A stretch of 41,282 nt of DNA from Clostridia bacterium (GTDB taxonomy: Bacteria; Bacillota; Clostridia; Christensenellales; CAG-314): positions 1 through 41,282 of the forward strand of contig JAFTHO010000045.1 of NCBI GenBank assembly GCA_017457385.1, written 5' to 3'. Shown here piece by piece: positions 671-28,156 of the stretch; position 1 is the first letter of the stretch; every line of letters starts with the position of its first letter. The notes under the pieces are model-generated. The model worked only from the letters and a program-made list of their open reading frames with translations, ran no database searches and was not told the origin of the DNA. Position numbers and translations under genes: made by a program.

Positions 671-2113
671 ATGATAAAAGAAGTTCGCACTCGTTTTGCT
701 CCAAGCCCAACGGGATATATGCACATCGGCAACCTGCGCACAGCGCTTTATGCCTATCTTTTTGCACGCAAAAACAACGGCAAGTTTATTTTGCGTATAG
801 AAGACACAGATATGGAAAGATACGTCGAAGGTGCAGTGGACATCATTTTGGACACGCTCAAAACAGTTGGCATGGACTATGACGAAGGCCCAATCGTTGG
901 TGGCGACTATGGTCCATACGTGCAAAGCCAACGCAAAAACGAATATATGAAATATGCTTTGGAACTTGTAGAAAAAGGAGAGGCATATTATTGTTTTTGC
1001 AGCAAAGAAAGACTTGAAAATCTGCCTGACGTAAACGGCGCACGCAAATATGACAAACATTGTCTGCACCTGTCTAAAGAAGAAATTCAGGCAAAACTTG
1101 ACGCAGGCGAACCTTTCGTTATCCGTCAGAATATGCCAACAGAGGGCAAAACAAAATATCACGATATGGTTTTTGGCGATATCGAAATTGACAACAGCGA
1201 GCTTGAGGACAACATTCTCATCAAGTCAGACGGTATGCCAACCTACAACTTTGCCAACGTAATTGACGACCACCTTATGAACATCACTGTGGTTATGCGT
1301 GGCATCGAATATTTGTCATCAACGCCAAAATACAACCTTTTGTACAAGGCTTTCGGCTGGGAACAACCAATGTATATGCACTTGCCACCAATCATGAAAG
1401 ATGCACAGCACAAACTTTCTAAACGAAACGGCGACGCAAGTTTTGCAGATCTTTTGGAAAAAGGCTTTTTGACAGAAGCTATCGTAAACTATATTGCTCT
1501 TCTCGGCTGGTCACCAAAAGGCAACGAAGAAAAACTTTCTATGGACGAACTCAAACAGATGTTTGGCGTAGAGGGCATTTCTAAATCACAATCTATCTTT
1601 GACGAACAAAAACTCCGCTGGCTCAACGGCAGATATATCAAAGAACTCGACTTTGACAAGTTTGTGTCTATGGCAACACCTTTCCTCGACAAATCAAAGG
1701 TGGCAGGCAAATATGACTATATCAAACTTTGCAAACTCATCCAGTCACGCATTGATACTTTGGGCGACATCCCTGACCTTGTAAACTTCCTCGAAGAGTT
1801 TGAGGCTTTTGACAACGAACTTTATACTCACAAAAAACTCAAAACAAACCCGGACGTTGCAAAAGACGTGTTGCCAAAAGTGAGAGAAAAACTTGCCTCT
1901 CTTGACGACTGGAACGAAACGTCAATTCACGACACACTCATTGGTCTTGTTGGCGAACTGGGTGTAAAAAACGGCATCGTATTGTGGCCTGTTCGTGTGG
2001 CACTCAGTGGCAAAGCAAGCACACCTGGTGGCGCAACAGAACTTGCCGACCTTTTGGGCAAAGAAGAATCTCTCCGCAGACTTGATTTTTCTATGGAATT
2101 GCTTAATAAATAA
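671..2113 (+). CDS. gltX: Glutamate--tRNA ligase
   Basis: RTRFAPSPTGYMHIGN (HIGH) and KLSKR motifs. GGAGGG SD precedes ATG 671. Confidence 0.97.
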   Translation: MIKEVRTRFAPSPTGYMHIGNLRTALYAYLFARKNNGKFILRIEDTDMERYVEGAVDIILDTLKTVGMDYDEGPIVGGDYGPYVQSQRKNEYMKYALELVEKGEAYYCFCSKERLENLPDVNGARKYDKHCLHLSKEEIQAKLDAGEPFVIRQNMPTEGKTKYHDMVFGDIEIDNSELEDNILIKSDGMPTYNFANVIDDHLMNITVVMRGIEYLSSTPKYNLLYKAFGWEQPMYMHLPPIMKDAQHKLSKRNGDASFADLLEKGFLTEAIVNYIALLGWSPKGNEEKLSMDELKQMFGVEGISKSQSIFDEQKLRWLNGRYIKELDFDKFVSMATPFLDKSKVAGKYDYIKLCKLIQSRIDTLGDIPDLVNFLEEFEAFDNELYTHKKLKTNPDVAKDVLPKVREKLASLDDWNETSIHDTLIGLVGELGVKNGIVLWPVRVALSGKASTPGGATELADLLGKEESLRRLDFSMELLNK

Positions 2114-2136
2114 AACACACTTACAAAGTATAATAA

Positions 2137-2166
2137 AAAAAGCACAGGAAAATTCCTGTGCTTTTT
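2137..2166 (+). terminator. Intrinsic terminator after gltX
   Basis: AAAAAGCACAGGAA-aa-TTCCTGTGCTTTTT hairpin with T tract. Confidence 0.8.
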
Positions 2167-2207
2167 GTTTGTAAAATTTGTTAAAATTAGGTCATAAAAA
2201 TAAAAAA

Positions 2208-2275
2208 CCTCCATCGGAGGAGGGAGGTGGATGCGAGTTTACGAGCAGACGGAGGGAGTCGAAAGTAAAAACCCT
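2208..2275 (+). repeat. Left inverted-repeat arm of cassette 1
   Basis: CCTCCATCGGAGGAGGGAGGTGGAT-GCGAGTTTACGAGC-AGACGGAGGGAGTCGAAAGTAAAAACCCT, a GC-rich island in AT-rich DNA. Confidence 0.9.
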
Positions 2276-2311
2276 CTTTTTTTATTATAAAAAATAGTGT
2301 AAACTAATGCT

Positions 2312-2668
2312 ATGAAAAAATATAATGAAAAAGGGACTCAACTTGCAAAACAATTGCGAAAAAACTCAACCCCGTGGGAAAGAAAACTATGGTATGAGTT
2401 TTTAAAAGATTATTCCACAAGATTTACACGACAAAAACCATTGGGGAATTATATTGCAGATTTTTATTGTTCCAAGGCAAAATTGGTTATAGAACTTGAT
2501 GGCAGTCAACACTTTTTGCCACAAGAAAGTCAAAAAGATTTGCAACGAACAAATGAGTTAGAAAAAACAGGTCTTTTGGTTTTGCGAATAAACAATGACG
2601 AAATTGACAAAAACTTTAACAACGTTTGTGAATATATAGATATGCAGGTTAAAGCAAGGCTAGGGTAG
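2312..2668 (+). CDS. DUF559 family (Vsr/very-short-patch-repair-like) endonuclease
   Basis: Motifs LRKNSTPWERKLW, FTRQKPLGNYIADFYC, IELDGSQH and D..RT..LE..G..VLRI.N.EI. Confidence 0.9.
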   Translation: MKKYNEKGTQLAKQLRKNSTPWERKLWYEFLKDYSTRFTRQKPLGNYIADFYCSKAKLVIELDGSQHFLPQESQKDLQRTNELEKTGLLVLRINNDEIDKNFNNVCEYIDMQVKARLG

Positions 2669-2732
2669 TTTTATTTTCGACTCCCTCCGTCTTTTCGCTA
2701 CGCTCAAATCCACCTCCCTCCTCCGATGGAGG
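2662..2732 (-). repeat. Right inverted-repeat arm of cassette 1
   Basis: Reverse complement of the left arm except for a 15-nt central spacer. Overlaps the DUF559 stop codon. Confidence 0.9.
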
Positions 2733-2803
2733 CTTTAAACAGAATGTTTTAAAATTTAGCAATTTATTAAATTGTAATAGTGTTGCTTTTTATACAAAGT
2801 AAC

Positions 2804-2838
2804 AAAAAAAAGACACGAGAAAAGCACGTGTCTTTTTT
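2804..2838. terminator. Bidirectional terminator-like hairpin
   Basis: AAAAAAGACACG..CGTGTCTTTTTT between the convergent DUF559 and SDR genes. Confidence 0.65.
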
Positions 2839-2856
2839 GTTTTGTTTTTTAGTTGC

Positions 2857-3082
2857 GTCACCACTACAACAAGTCAGCACCATAAAGGCTTTGTTTTACA
2901 ACTGCACCTCATACAGAGCCAACCTTTGGTGACTTTTTACTCGAAGTGGTGCAGTTTACATACCAGCATTTGCAAAGTTTGTTTCAACAAACAAAGTTGC
3001 ATTTTACTCGTGTTTGTCACCACTACAACAAGTCATCACCATAAAAGTTTTGTATAACAACTAAACTTTATACAGAGCCAAC
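2857..3082 (-). repeat. Tandem non-coding repeat (period 159 bp), homologous to 18011-18232
   Basis: 2857-2923 and 3016-3082 match at 58/67 positions without gaps. The reverse complement shares several ordered blocks with 18011-18232. Confidence 0.85.
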
Positions 3083-3109
3083 TCGTTCGCGCGAACTTTT
3101 GAAGTTCGC

Positions 3110-3868
3110 TTATGGACGCAATGCAGAGCCACCTTGGAGTTCGATTGTCTGACCTGTGATATAAGCAGATTCGTCACTTGCAAGGAACACGCAAACACGA
3201 CCGATATCTTCCTGTGGATCGCCAAAGCGGTGAAGTGGGATAGCAGAAAGTTGTTTTGCATACATTTCAGGGAAGGCTTCTTTCCATTGTGCAAGACCAG
3301 GTGTCATTGCGAGTGGGCAAACAACGTTTACACGAATGCCAAATTCGCCCCATTCTGTTGCAGCAGTACGGCTGAGACCACGGATGCCTTCTTTTGCAGC
3401 GCCGTATGATGACTGACCAGGTCTGCCGTGCAAACCGGCACCAGATGCAAAGTTGATGACTGTGCCTTTGCTTTCTTTAAGATAAGGGAAAGCCTCTCTC
3501 ATATACCAGAAAGAAGCATAAAGACCTGTGTAGATAGCAAGGTCAAAATCTTCGGTAGTGTGCTCTACAAGTGTGAGACCAGATTTAGAAGTTTGTGCAT
3601 TGTTTACAATGCTGTCAATGCGACCATAGTGTTCTGCAATTTTTGCAACTGCGTTTTTTACGTCAGCTTCTTTACTGCCGTCTGCAGAAACGCAAAATAC
3701 AGGCACGTTGTAGTCAGCTGTGATTTGTTGTGCTGCTTTTTCAAGTTTGTCAAGGTTGCGACCAGTGATAGCAAGGCTTGCGCCTTCTGCCGCAAAAGCA
3801 CGTGCAATGCCAAGACCAATGCCTTGACCACCACCTGTGACAACAACTACTTTGTCTTTCATTTTCAT
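3110..3868 (-). CDS. Short-chain dehydrogenase/reductase, hydroxysteroid dehydrogenase-like
   Basis: TGGGQGIG NAD(P)-binding motif, NNA and catalytic YGAAK. AAGGAG SD before ATG 3868. Confidence 0.9.
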   Translation of the reverse strand: MKMKDKVVVVTGGGQGIGLGIARAFAAEGASLAITGRNLDKLEKAAQQITADYNVPVFCVSADGSKEADVKNAVAKIAEHYGRIDSIVNNAQTSKSGLTLVEHTTEDFDLAIYTGLYASFWYMREAFPYLKESKGTVINFASGAGLHGRPGQSSYGAAKEGIRGLSRTAATEWGEFGIRVNVVCPLAMTPGLAQWKEAFPEMYAKQLSAIPLHRFGDPQEDIGRVCVFLASDESAYITGQTIELQGGSALRP

Positions 3869-13773: not shown

Positions 13774-13951
13774 TAAAGAAGACGCACCTTTTGAGTGCGT
13801 GACTCAACTGCGGTTGAGCCCAGGGAATGCAGTGCAAATCTGCAACAGCCCCCGCTACTGTATGTGGCTACGTGTTTTTATATCCATTGCCCCTTTGGGG
13901 TGAGAAGGCAAAAACGTCGGCTATGCCACAAAGTCAGGAGACCTTTCTTTA
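13774..13951 (+). ncRNA. Cobalamin (AdoCbl) riboswitch
   Basis: GGGAATGCAGTGCAAATCTGCAACAGCCCCCGCTACTGTA core and AGTCAGGAGACC B12 box. P1 is TAAAGAAG/CTTTCTTTA. Probable attenuator hairpin at 13999-14029. Confidence 0.92.
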
Positions 13952-14068
13952 AACAATGCACAAAGATACTATCTTCGGAGGGAAGAGGGTGCTTTTTTGA
14001 TGGACGTATGCGTGGTAGTCCGTCTTTTTGCAACTGCTCTTTCGGGCAGTTTTTTTGTTTATCCGTTT

Positions 14069-14151
14069 AAAGGCTCCAGTTGCGTTTTGCTAAAGCAAAT
14101 TCGCAATATTGCGAAGGAGGGAGCTGTCGCGCAAGCGACTGAGGGAGTCGA
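14069..14151 (+). repeat. Solo arm of the DUF559-associated repeat family
   Basis: AAAGGCTCC...GGGAGCTGTCGC-gcaa-GCGACTGAGGGAGTCGA matches the left arm of cassette 2. Its 3' end matches the left arm of cassette 1. Confidence 0.85.
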
Positions 14152-14212
14152 TATGACTCAAAAATTTTGTTTTATGCCCGAAACAACCTCTCCATATTTT
14201 GGAGGAAATTTT

Positions 14213-14689
14213 ATGAAAACTTTTACAAAAAAACTTTTGGCACTTTTGCTTGTTGTCTTGTCTGTGTTTGCTTTTGCAGGTTGTGGCGACAGCTATGCAC
14301 TCAAAGGAGATGCAACTGTGATTATTCATGGCGAAACAGACGTGGTATACGAGGTTGACCTTGACGAAGCAGAGTTTACAACGCAAAACACCGTGCTCGA
14401 TTTGCTTGCTTATCTGTGTGAGCAAGACGACCTTGCTTTCAGTGCGGGTGCAAACGGCTCTGCAGAGTGGGGTTACAGTGCTTTTATCAACAGCATTGGC
14501 GACCTCGTCCCAGGTGGCAACCAGTACGTAGCGTTTTTTCACAACAAACAAAGCGACAAAGATGTGTCTGCCTATGCATTGCCAGACAGACAATATGGCG
14601 ACACAACTTTGTATTACAGCGGACTTGGCGTTGGCAGTGTAAAACTTGTTGATGACCTTGTGGTATATTTTTGTATAGAAAGTTTTTGA
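14213..14689 (+). CDS. Lipoprotein, putative cobalamin-binding (transcobalamin C-terminal/DUF4430-like)
   Basis: GGAGG SD, lipobox FAG-C, 'TVLDLL' and 'FINSIG' segments. First gene behind a B12 riboswitch. Confidence 0.65.
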   Translation: MKTFTKKLLALLLVVLSVFAFAGCGDSYALKGDATVIIHGETDVVYEVDLDEAEFTTQNTVLDLLAYLCEQDDLAFSAGANGSAEWGYSAFINSIGDLVPGGNQYVAFFHNKQSDKDVSAYALPDRQYGDTTLYYSGLGVGSVKLVDDLVVYFCIESF

Positions 14690-15430: not shown

Positions 15431-16348
15431 ATGAAAAATAAAATAAAATCATTGTTGATACTGTTGCTTTCGTTTATTTGTATTTTTGCATTTTGTGCCT
15501 GCAACAATGACCCACCGCCTGACAACGATGGAGGGTCAGACTCTGGCACACAAAGTGGTACTTCGTCTGAAAGTGGTTCTGCATCAGGCAGTGGTTCATC
15601 ATCAGGCAGTGGTTCTGCATCAGGCAGTGGTGCGTCATCAGGTGGTGGTACGTCGTCTGATAGCACACAAGGTGGTACGGTTGTACCAAATTTCTCTGAT
15701 TTTGATTATACAATAACAGACGGCAAGGTGACTATTACTCAATATATAAGGACAAAAACAGTTGTTGAAATTCCTGCAACGATTGAAAACAAACCAGTTG
15801 TTGCCATTGGTGAAGACGCATTTGAAAACAAAGACCACGTGACAAACGTGACTATTGCAAACAGTATAACAACAATCGGAAAAAGTGCATTTGAGGATTG
15901 CGATAACTTGACGTCAGTTGTTTTTGCAAATGGCAGTCAACTTGAAACTATTGGCGAATATGCTTTTTATAACTGCAAAAAACTTGCAGACTTAACGTTG
16001 CAATCAGGTCTTAAAACAATAGGTAGAAGTGCTTTTTCATATTGTGCTTTTGATACAATGACATTGCCAAATGGTGTCGAAATTATTAATGCCTTTGCTT
16101 TTTCTGACTGTAGCAAACTTGAATATATCGTTATACCTGAAAGTGTTGTGACAATAGATGAGTTTGCTTTTTTCAACAATCCAAATCTTACAATATACTG
16201 TATGGCAACAAGCAAACCTGCATCGTGGGGTGATAGTTGGAATCATACGGCACTTACGTACTGGTATAGCGAAACTCAACCAACAACTGCGGGTAACTAC
16301 TGGCATTATGTCAATGGTGAGCCAACAGTATGGGGAGTTGCAGATTAA
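15431..16348 (+). CDS. BspA-type leucine-rich-repeat lipoprotein
   Basis: Lipobox FCA-C, Ser/Gly linker and repeated 'IG..AF..C..L..V.I' units. Confidence 0.88.
   Translation: MKNKIKSLLILLLSFICIFAFCACNNDPPPDNDGGSDSGTQSGTSSESGSASGSGSSSGSGSASGSGASSGGGTSSDSTQGGTVVPNFSDFDYTITDGKVTITQYIRTKTVVEIPATIENKPVVAIGEDAFENKDHVTNVTIANSITTIGKSAFEDCDNLTSVVFANGSQLETIGEYAFYNCKKLADLTLQSGLKTIGRSAFSYCAFDTMTLPNGVEIINAFAFSDCSKLEYIVIPESVVTIDEFAFFNNPNLTIYCMATSKPASWGDSWNHTALTYWYSETQPTTAGNYWHYVNGEPTVWGVAD
15554..15661 (+). repeat. Six imperfect 18-bp tandem units encoding the Ser/Gly linker
   Basis: AGTGGTTCTGCATCAGGC-like units at 15554, 15572, 15590, 15608, 15626 and 15644. Confidence 0.85.
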
Positions 16349-18010: not shown

Positions 18011-18232
18011 AAAGTGTGCAAAAGTATGCTTTGAATATGGTTTCTTTGTGAAACAAAGCTTTTATAGTGCTGACAAATTGCAGAGGCACACGAACACGAG
18101 TAAAAGGTTTGTTAACAACACACAGCAAGGGCTGATATGTTGCTATACCACTTCGAGTTAAAGTGTGCAAGAGTTGGCTCTGTATATAGTACCATTGATA
18201 CACAAAACTTTTATGGTGCTGACAAATTGCAG
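18011..18232 (+). repeat. Tandem non-coding repeat (period 149 bp), homologous to 2857-3082 (minus)
   Basis: 18011-18083 and 18160-18232 match at 59/73 positions without gaps. Confidence 0.85.
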
Positions 18233-18263
18233 CGACTCACAAGATGAACACATTATTAAAAAA

Positions 18264-18781
18264 GGCTCCTCCTGACGGGGGAGCTGTCGCACGAATGGGC
18301 GACTGAGGGAGAGATAACCTGCACAAAAACAATAAAATATGTTATACTTTAACTATGAAAGAATACAACAAAAACAACACCAAAAAAGCACAATATCTTC
18401 GCAAAAATGCAACCCCATGGGAAAGAAAGTTGTGGTATGAATTTTTGAAAGACTATCCAATACGTTTTCAGCGACAAAAACCAATAGACAATTTTGTGGC
18501 AGATTTTTATTGTGCAAAGGCAGGCATTGTTTTAGAACTTGATGGTGGCGAACATTTTTCGTCGCAAACGTTGCAATATGATCAGATGAGAACAGAAATA
18601 TTGCAAAAAAAAGGTGTAAAAGTAGTCAGAATTTGCAACAACGAAATTGACAAAAATTTTGAAGGTGTTTGCGAATATATAGATGATATTGTAAAACAAA
18701 ATTTAAAGAGCAGATAACAAGCATACGTCATCTCTCCCTCAGTCTGGCATACGCCAGCCAGCTCCCCCGTCAGGAGGAGCC
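18264..18781. mobile_element. DUF559 cassette 2: endonuclease gene bounded by long inverted repeats
   Basis: 18264-18286 is the perfect reverse complement of 18759-18781 (23 bp), and 18301-18315 of 18730-18744 (15 bp). Mobility is inferred. Confidence 0.6.
18355..18717 (+). CDS. DUF559 family endonuclease, paralog 2
   Basis: LRKNATPWERKLW, FQRQKPIDNFVADFYC and LELDGGEH. 73/118 residues identical to 2312-2668 by manual ungapped alignment. Confidence 0.9.
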   Translation: MKEYNKNNTKKAQYLRKNATPWERKLWYEFLKDYPIRFQRQKPIDNFVADFYCAKAGIVLELDGGEHFSSQTLQYDQMRTEILQKKGVKVVRICNNEIDKNFEGVCEYIDDIVKQNLKSR

Positions 18782-18879
18782 CTTTTTATTTTGTCTTTGC
18801 TGTTGGTTTTGTTGTCAGTTTGCAATTTAAGGACAATATCGTTTATGCGAGGTTTTTGAAATCCTGCCTGCATAAAAAT

Positions 18880-28036: not shown

Positions 28037-28066
28037 ATTCACCTCCCTCGCCAGAGGGAGGCTTTT
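28037..28066 (-). repeat. Truncated arm of the DUF559-associated repeat family
   Basis: ATTCACCTCCCTCGCCAGAGGGAGGCTTT versus cassette 1 right arm ATCCACCTCCCTCCTCCGATGGAGGCTTT. Confidence 0.7.
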
Positions 28067-28156
28067 ATTTTCTGCTTGTATTGCGTTATATCTTTTATTC
28101 TTGCTTTAATTTGGTCTGGCCCACGAGGGGTATCTCTCGCAATTACATACAAAATC

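Follow-up and report, generated by a model that had tools for sequence, protein, structure and literature searches.

Dispersed three-block repeat arms flanking DUF559 genes in gut Clostridia, with covariation pointing to a strand-specific, triplex-capable fold

Introduction

The BoxC/PIT/TM repeats (Holder 2015, PMC4666352; Hoyne et al. 2000, cited there) carry a pyrimidine block (Y), a loop, a purine block (R), a second loop and a mirrored purine block in this order on one strand, and are G/C-rich, intergenic, dispersed, often found as inverted pairs and polymorphic between close strains. TM_ECO was described as a class II purine-motif triplex that folds as single-stranded DNA by circular dichroism and nuclear magnetic resonance (melting temperature 70-82 °C), the 2015 survey found BoxC/PIT/TM repeats in hundreds of genomes, and the accessible portion of that article names no enzyme for them (Holder 2015, PMC4666352). 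Here we describe repeats of the same layout in a 41,282-nt contig (JAFTHO010000045.1, the whole of which is called the window) of the Clostridia draft genome GCA_017457385.1, where they form arms of about 60 nt that bracket, as inverted pairs, two genes for DUF559 proteins. To our knowledge the BoxC/PIT/TM repeats, catalogued since the 1990s, lack a function, a mechanism of spread and a partner protein, and we know of no role for DUF559, a very large family of small nucleases.

A second precedent is the REP/REPIN-RAYT system or 'REPtron' (PMC8266576, PMC3733652), in which short structured intergenic repeats likewise act as folded single-stranded DNA. The locus described here resembles it in having head-to-head dimers, a small single-domain nuclease gene between inverted copies, a repeat subtype specific to each paralogue, co-occurrence of gene and repeats and high-copy inverted dimers; it differs in that the nuclease is a PD-(D/E)XK (Vsr-like) hydrolase and not an HUH Y1 transposase, and in that the arm fold has three blocks and a connector hairpin. 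No GTAG or CGTC tag is apparent in the arm consensus; the C-rich strand of type-B arms does contain CCGTC, in paired bases. DUF559 also has its nuclease fold and core motif in common with Vsr and I-Bth0305I, and the three have been placed in one clade (Steczkiewicz 2012, PMC3424549). Unlike I-Bth0305I the DUF559 cassettes have no intron or intein context, and unlike Vsr no cytosine methyltransferase partner was noticed beside them, no search having been aimed at one. Below we describe the anatomy of the arms, the covariation of their parts, their strand asymmetry, their insertion polymorphism and their positional and genomic association with DUF559, and argue that on balance they are probably triplex-hairpin modules of single-stranded DNA which flank, and are acted on by, DUF559.

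Results

Anatomy of the repeat arms

The window is contig C24 of a draft genome (G000) of 1.57 Mb with 40% G+C, 206 contigs and 95% completeness. Both of its DUF559 genes, which we call cassettes 1 and 2 together with their arms, score above the Pfam cut-off for PF04480 (20.6 bits; Table 1); they encode proteins with 62% mutual identity and are the sole such genes in G000. Read 5′→3′ toward the gene, an arm consists of a short A-rich lead, G-S-CTCCCTC, a 3-4-nt loop, GAGGGAG-S-T, a hairpin called P2, K-GAGGGAG and a few subtype-specific bases at the 3′ end (e.g. TCGA, AGATAA or AGCAAA). The Y-block and the first R-block form a 9-bp hairpin (P1), the S position of which covaries (G-C in 95 arms and C-G in 42, the search pattern having admitted all four S/K combinations) and the terminal pair of which is G.T in 133 of 146 arms. 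P2 opens with G-K-C and closes with G-A-C. An initial annotation made from the window alone had quoted the central spacers of the arms as the only non-complementary part of each arm pair and as small hairpins. All of these spacers are present as quoted (Table 1), the range 2233-2707 spanning the left to the right spacer of cassette 1, and they do lie in a hairpin, but its extent was underestimated, since the shared closing pairs GGAT...AGAC or GKC...GAC belong to P2 and the 'spacer' is only its inner part. For the left arm of cassette 1 a TTTA loop closed by G-C is a better fit than the proposed 2-nt TT loop.

The comparison with TM_ECO is mixed. Loop 1, of 3-4 nt in the arms, fits the 3-6 nt of TM_ECO, whereas the blocks (CTCCCTC/GAGGGAG, 7-9 nt) depart from the TM_ECO consensus CCCTCNCCC...GGGNGAGGG...GGGNGAGGG. 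Where TM_ECO has a second loop of 3 nt, the arms have a covarying hairpin of 11-33 nt that contains G.A pairs and GNA loops. The arms also come from other hosts, gut Clostridia as opposed to the Proteobacteria and Cyanobacteria of BoxC/PIT/TM.

Covariation in the P2 hairpin

A pattern scan with one genome per species gave at least 124 loci, nearly all from gut or rumen Clostridia, holding 153 arms; together with the arms of G000 and two relatives these made up 181 distinct arms with 142 distinct P2 sequences. A covariance model was trained on 38 arms and recovers 187 arms in 93 sources. The P2 stems are 4-13 pairs long in the 142 distinct sequences. At stem positions 4-7, which were left free in the search pattern, 3.47 of 4 positions are paired within an arm, compared with a mean of 1.67 (maximum 2.07 over 1000 permutations) when the two sides are taken from different arms. 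Of 1050 stem cells 914 are Watson-Crick, 80 G.A, 37 A.G, 12 G.T, 1 A.C, 1 C.T and 5 other. When 150 arms are aligned to the model, 95.8% of cells are paired (84.6% after shuffling), two-sided changes are found at 13 of 15 pairs, and there are 227 compensatory cells where 54.8 are expected and 8-22 are found with the partners slid; the unaligned within- and between-arm test agrees with this result. The proposal that the spacers differ in sequence and yet keep a small hairpin is thus upheld by compensatory change across 142 distinct homologous spacers, and the covariance model of many arms that the initial annotation had suggested does show covariation across homologous arms.

The third block

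Pyrimidine, purine and purine blocks stand in this order on one strand in all 153 pattern-found arms, and also in the 187 arms found with the model. When the third block is laid against P1 in mirror register and read with a triplet code (G on G.C; A or T on A.T), 6.52 of 7 positions are compatible over the 187 arms. Only 61 of these arms, those with a block that is not self-mirror, are informative, because GAGGGAG is its own mirror and cannot separate a direct from a mirror repeat. In the 61 arms the mirror register scores 6.13 of 7 and the direct register 3.95 of 7, the mirror winning in 53 arms, tying in six and losing in two; when third blocks are permuted among the arms the mean is 4.89 and the maximum in 1000 trials 5.23. 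At least eight distinct purine types each occur with the matching mirror, among them GGGAGAG/GAGAGGG, AGGGGAG/GAGGGGT, AAGGGAG/GAGGGAT, GAGGAAG/GAAGGAG, GAGGGGG/GGGGGAG and AAAGGAG/GAGGATT. The base before the third block would form an eighth triplet, and it is a T facing C.G in 107 and a G facing G.C in 62 of the 187 arms; T opposite a C.G inversion is a favoured triplet. Pairing of the Y-block with the last purine block, as in a switch or attenuator, was also considered and is ruled out, the non-self-mirror families showing a mirror and not a direct repeat. Because the third block covaries in mirror register, we conclude from the alignments that selection appears to maintain a three-strand relation, with P2 as the presumed link through which the strand doubles back onto P1.

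Strand asymmetry and predicted folding

The mismatches in P2 are distributed asymmetrically, 117 being G.A or A.G and one C.T, and 12 being G.T and one A.C; the opposite strand would show C.T and A.C where the G-rich strand has G.A and G.T. The tandem G.A pairs that had been noticed in cassette 1 recur in 32 of the 142 P2s, at two distinct stem depths, and always in the same order (34 in the order 5′-GA/5′-GA, none reversed). The GNA loop likewise recurs, being the commonest class (56 of 142 P2s, with 12 GNRA and 13 GNYA); triloops dominate, and the C-GNA-G tops are GAA in 22, GCA in 17, GTA in 12 and GGA in five P2s. GNA mini-hairpins of DNA of the d(GCGAAGC) type were reportedly described by Hirao, Yoshizawa and colleagues in the 1990s; the arms have the same C-GNA-G tops, here capping longer stems within a larger fold. 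With DNA parameters the two-hairpin fold is the predicted energy minimum for the left arm of cassette 2 (-12.8 kcal/mol, z -3.59), for its right arm (z -3.33) and for a solo arm elsewhere in the window (-17.1 kcal/mol, z -3.44), the G-rich strand folding better than its complement by 2.5-2.8 kcal/mol in cassette 2 and by 1.0 kcal/mol in the solo arm. Together these patterns support the view that selection acts on the arm as a folded, strand-specific single strand. The earlier idea of a strand-specific two-hairpin structure therefore stands as to the folded single strand and the strand asymmetry, but not as to two hairpins being the whole, since the third purine block mirrors the purine strand of P1.

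Dispersal and insertion polymorphism

The covariance model finds about 24 arms in G000 at E < 0.01, 51 in G027 and 58 in G039. Fifteen arms of G000 were located by regular expression, of which 13 are uncrossed by any open reading frame (ORF) of at least 100 aa and two are crossed by mechanical ORFs only, so that all 15 look intergenic. Among 62 neighbouring arm pairs in the fetched loci 35 are head-to-head, 18 tail-to-tail and nine tandem; by subtype, pairs are A+B in 18 cases, A+A in nine, B+B in one and untyped in seven. The gene-less head-to-head pairs have gaps of about -9 to 51 nt. Two weak model matches (C40:13554-13604 and C62:1668-1718, E 0.8) were treated as false positives, being tRNA-like by eye; tRNA-like sites match the arm model weakly because P1, P2 and the third block have look-alikes in the anticodon arm, a long variable arm and the T-stem.

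In a genome of the same genus (G001), with flanks about 75-92% identical, both cassettes are absent, and so is the arm at five of five tested solo or paired sites. Around cassette 1 the flanks are collinear and the missing DNA corresponds to window positions 2171-3022, which include a second repeat and a terminator, so the indel is not clean; around cassette 2 the flanks are collinear and the intergenic DNA is unrelated. Insertion junctions could be located at three of the five sites. The insert on contig C40 (L013 1468-1575) is 87 nt long, holds one arm and is accompanied by an 18-nt direct duplication of a target that is single-copy in G001; the inserts on C118 (119 nt) and C27 (about 230 nt, carrying another module as well) have no clear duplication and no duplication, respectively, and the junctions of an arm pair on C13 and of C118:3392 are not cleanly alignable to G001. 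The P2 of the solo arm on C27 is the same as that of the left arm of cassette 1, and over 62 bases the two arms differ at two; because they are nearly identical, single arms appear to have been copied recently.

Contigs assembled from four public runs were compared with positions 1500-3700 of the window: the cassette is present in contigs of X3 and X4, with depth spikes at the arms, and none of the contigs joins across cassette 1 or has an opposite-strand joint at the arms. A contig from an RNA library (metatranscriptome) covers 2332-2476, inside the ORF only, which shows presence in the library and nothing on expression.

Association with DUF559 genes

Within a set of 41 relatives, only G000, G027 and G039, which come from three different families and all have a close DUF559 homologue, reach at least 16 arms; a strict DNA pattern under-counts in this set, giving arms in three of the 41 genomes compared with nine for the covariance model. 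In a sample of the order comprising about 150 genomes, stand-alone DUF559 genes are present in 25 and arms (E <= 1e-4) in 28, with 21 genomes having both, four the gene only, seven arms only and about 118 neither; these genomes include kin and are not independent. Arm counts per genome in this sample cover at most 38 scored candidates. The gene-only genomes are G035 (51% complete), G085, G153 and G170 (which may lie outside the arm sample), and five of the arms-only genomes have 1-6 matches. In the other two, G053 (contig C4) and G133, many arms are clustered on one contig, and DUF559 has no match at E <= 1e-5. Outside the order DUF559 was found in five of 250 sampled genomes of the phylum.

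At 16 of 25 other stand-alone DUF559 loci of the order the arm model has a match within 130 nt in the canonical orientation, six of them on both sides, and inverted repeats on either side of the gene attain z >= 8, relative to shuffles of the flanks, at 11 of 25 loci of the order and two of nine loci of the phylum. The arms flanking foreign DUF559 genes often have different block sequences and, on the two sides, different P2s. No gene other than DUF559 recurs between arms. A literature search that did not extend to the supplements of Holder 2015 and Milman 2023 turned up no article linking DUF559 with repeats of this kind.

The nearest solved relative of the DUF559 protein is PDB 3hrl (E 1.1e-12), followed by 3r3p, an intron homing endonuclease domain (E 0.03), which fits the Vsr/DUF559 clade of Steczkiewicz 2012. 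The core motif of D50, E61, D63 and H67 is retained in 12 of 13 aligned DUF559 proteins; D50 is invariant and the other three residues are at least 90% conserved. In an arm-flanked copy in G051 (L194 1501-1797) IEVMGPLS replaces ELDGxQH, with loss of D63 and H67, and this gene may be inactive. No transposase or invertase gene was found in or beside either cassette, and no match to the Y1/RAYT transposase (PF01797) was found in the 95%-complete G000 by a search that was positive in six of 14 control genomes.

The E. coli K-12 gene ycjD is annotated as a DUF559 protein, 46% identical to that of cassette 1, and is likewise adjoined by a BoxC/TM_ECO-like copy (Table 1). Its stop codon falls within a CCCTC...GGGAGAGGG hairpin, with a better copy some 165 nt further downstream. 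The adjoining repeat occurs at 21 places in the K-12 chromosome. Its length and copy number agree with those that Petrillo et al. 2008 (PMC2267715) list for BoxC, a likeness drawn from those two properties and not from the published BoxC sequence, and in sequence it fits the TM_ECO pattern of Holder 2015.

Other features of the window

The solo arm has a complete P1, but its loop holds a 38-nt inserted module. Copies of this module of about 38 nt, which has small hairpins of its own (TTGCG...CGCAA and TTCGCAATATTGCGAA), lie inside the P1 loop of some arms and beside the C27 arm, and this suggests that the repeats are assembled as mosaics. P1 loops were inspected by eye for pairing with the 3′ flank and no complementarity was seen. 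A cobalamin riboswitch (RF00174, 84.3 bits; 13786-13964, +) lies just upstream of the solo arm, which is thus placed between the riboswitch and the gene starting near 14213, its presumed target. At 28037-28071 (+) there is an isolated P1-like hairpin, CCTCCCTC-GCCA-GAGGGAGG, with a T-run after it. It lacks both P2 and a third block, and may be a terminator of the usual kind or an arm cut short.

An unrelated dispersed repeat of about 70-80 nt forms a tandem pair beside both cassettes (2857-2923 and 3016-3082, +; 18011-18091 and 18160-18240, inverted), with copies on at least ten other contigs of G000 and many in G001. An 18-nt tandem repeat of about five units (AGTGGTTCTGCATCAGGC-like) at 15554-15651 probably codes for a Ser/Gly-rich stretch.

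Table 1. Positions of the cassettes, arms and associated features (window coordinates unless another source is named)
Feature	Position	Strand	Details
DUF559 gene, cassette 1	2312..2668	+	Vsr-like PD-(D/E)XK nuclease, 118 aa; PF04480 108.9 bits, E 1.5e-31
DUF559 gene, cassette 2	18355..18717	+	120 aa; PF04480 95 bits, E 3.1e-27
Promoter-like site, cassette 1	2259..2288	+	TCGAAA-18-TATTAT, left arm to ATG; consensus match only
Promoter-like site, cassette 2	18320-18348		consensus match only
Inverted repeat pair, cassette 1	2204-2237/2703-2736		91% identity
Inverted repeat pair, cassette 1	2242-2270/2669-2697		90% identity
Inverted repeat pair, cassette 2	18257-18318/18727-18788		84% identity
Cassette 1 left arm	2203..2264	+	model R1, E 3e-4
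Parts of cassette 1 left arm	Y 2207-2215; loop 2216-2219; R 2220-2228; P2 2229-2250; third block 2251-2258	+	R GAGGGAGGT; third block GGAGGGAG; flank TCGAAA
Spacer quoted for cassette 1 left arm	2233-2246		GCGAGTTTACGAGC
Cassette 1 right arm	2675..2737	-	folds on minus strand
Parts of cassette 1 right arm	third block 2681-2688; P2 2689-2711; R 2712-2720; loop 2721-2724; Y 2725-2733	-	P2 loop GTA
Spacer quoted for cassette 1 right arm	2693-2707	-	TTGAGCGTAGCGAAA
Cassette 2 left arm	18260..18317	+	model E 3.8e-10
Parts of cassette 2 left arm	R 18277-18285; P2 18286-18303; third block 18304-18311	+	R GGGGGAGCT; third block TGAGGGAG
Spacer quoted for cassette 2 left arm	18286-18303		GTCGCACGAATGGGCGAC
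Cassette 2 right arm	18728..18785	-	third block 18734-18741; P2 18742-18759; R 18760-18768
Spacer quoted for cassette 2 right arm	18742-18759	-	GGCTGGCGTATGCCAGAC
Solo arm	14072..14153	+	R 14117-14125; P2 14126-14139; third block 14140-14147
P2 of solo arm, as quoted	14126-14139	+	GTCGCGCAAGCGAC
Inserted module of about 38 nt	14081-14118		other copies: G000 C72:8573-8667; L011 ~1400-1460; also beside C27 arm
ycjD stop and BoxC/TM_ECO-like copies	L211 4190-4425		= E. coli K-12 1351189-1351424

Discussion

The explanation that we favour is that the arm is a 55-60-nt module working as folded single-stranded DNA on the G-rich strand, read 5′→3′ toward the gene. The Y-block G-S-CTCCCTC would pair with the purine block GAGGGAG-S-T to form P1. 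P2, closed by G-C, then G.A or T-A, then C-G, and variable in sequence and length, often with tandem sheared-type G.A pairs and a GNA or GNRA loop, would act as a compact connector that reverses the direction of the strand, and the third block K-GAGGGAG would lie antiparallel in the groove of P1 as the third strand of a purine-motif triplex. The arm would thus be a variant of the BoxC/PIT/TM intrastrand triplex class with a hairpin in loop 2. The modules are dispersed, apparently intergenic repeats, found solo, in head-to-head pairs or in clusters and polymorphic between related genomes, and the head-to-head pair with DUF559 between its arms would be the gene-bearing, autonomous form. The DUF559 protein is probably an enzyme that binds or nicks the folded module, a relation resembling that of RAYT and REP but with a PD-(D/E)XK nuclease. 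The formation of the triplex in the cell, the action of DUF559 on the fold and the spread by copying are steps that we infer, and the proposed link from DUF559 to the fold is one of gene position and co-occurrence.

Several observations weigh against this reading. The nearest-neighbour DNA energy model does not return the G.A-rich P2 of cassette 1, the proposed hairpin there resting on register homology with the family, and in the window's cassette 2 arms no more than 5 of 7 triplets are compatible, with mirror and direct registers equal. It should be noted that the pair and triplet counts use model-fitted alignments and that many arms are kin, the cells not being independent events. Arms also occur apart from the gene: G053 has at least 38 arms, G133 at least 25 and G001 two, all without a DUF559 gene, and DUF559 lies within 700 nt at only five of 133 foreign arm loci. 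Conversely, six of the 25 other DUF559 loci of the order have no arm model match nearby, and in about three (L178, L179 and L187) the arms point away from the gene. TM_ECO itself had no protection from dimethyl sulfate in vivo (Holder 2015, PMC4666352), a hydrolytic nuclease of 118 aa could not by itself explain the insertion step, and the case made here for folding, binding and cutting is drawn from sequence.

The main competing explanation is that the repeats spread or persist by some other means and that DUF559 is a free-standing homing-type gene, directed at the middle of head-to-head pairs and inserted there through repair on the homology of the arms. The grouping of DUF559 with Vsr and I-Bth0305I (3r3p, E 0.03; Steczkiewicz 2012, PMC3424549) would suit such a gene, as would its position exactly between the arms, the prevalence of gene-less head-to-head pairs, the commonest arrangement of neighbours (35 of 62), and the arm-rich but gene-less G053 and G133. 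High-copy arms without the gene are nevertheless rare (two of about 125 gene-less genomes), the two 62%-identical paralogues each have their own arm subtype, each also found solo in the genome, and neither the comparison with G001 nor the public-run contigs gave a filled and empty allele pair with clean arm-to-arm junctions; we regard homing as unlikely. That the arms act in RNA, as terminators, mRNA stabilisers or small RNAs whose hairpins would account for the covariation, is more improbable still. The arms do look intergenic, many of them lying after convergent genes, P1 with a T-run is terminator-like on the C-rich strand (one such site was flagged at 2223-2208, minus strand), G.U and G.A pairs and GNRA loops occur in RNA as well, and the metatranscriptome contig at 2332-2476 records presence in an RNA library and no more. 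Against this, the strand that bears G.T and G.A is opposite to the terminator-like one, triloops dominate, and the mirror covariation of the third block has no rationale in RNA pairing, purine-motif triplexes being unable to form in RNA (Holder 2015, PMC4666352). The left and the right arm of a cassette do not share a folding strand, so that both would require convergent transcription, and this, like the promoter-like sites between left arm and ATG, points to the DNA level. No arm has an Rfam match (only the cobalamin riboswitch reaches the gathering threshold, the best sub-threshold match being 23.1 bits with 55 needed), and PIT elements had no terminator or promoter activity in earlier work cited in Holder 2015 (PMC4666352).

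Two further explanations treat the arms as duplex sites. Were they terminal inverted repeats of an insertion sequence or a miniature inverted-repeat transposable element, read as duplex by a transposase encoded elsewhere, with DUF559 as a passenger, one would expect inverted pairs, which are found along with solo and gene-less arms, and target duplication, of which there is one 18-nt example. Yet two of the three locatable junctions have no duplication, single arms insert alone, the hairpins are kept by compensatory change despite sequence drift and the mismatches are strand-asymmetric; moreover, no transposase lies in or beside the cassettes, no Y1 gene was found in the genome and DUF559 is the sole recurrent gene between arms, so that we consider this explanation very improbable. 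We give least credence of all to the arms being sites at which recombination would invert DUF559 as a programmed switch. This would agree with the enrichment of DUF559 among predicted targets of programmed inversion (odds ratio 14.3; Milman 2023, PMC9881135), but no invertase gene is nearby, the arms are dispersed and mostly have no gene between them, and the contigs at the locus have no opposite-strand joint at the arms.

Vsr reads a T.G mismatch, and the arms keep conserved G.T and G.A pairs at the junction of P1 and P2. DUF559 proteins, including YcjD of E. coli, might be the missing structure-specific nucleases of the BoxC/PIT/TM repeats, reading G.T and G.A as Vsr reads T.G and driving spread and local instability across phyla, a tentative idea that could hold but on which we would not count. 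Because K-12 has a single ycjD next to such a repeat, the idea is testable by standard genetics and biochemistry.

The three-strand covariation is evolutionary, and not only oligonucleotide, evidence that a triplex-capable fold is selected. The G.A-rich, GNA-capped connector hairpin suggests that the triplex class is broader than what motif finders that expect a 3-nt loop detect, and the positional and genomic tie names DUF559 as a candidate enzyme for triplex-type repeats. If YcjD and other DUF559 proteins do prove to be nucleases of triplex repeats, they would form a second, HUH-independent counterpart of the REP-RAYT system.

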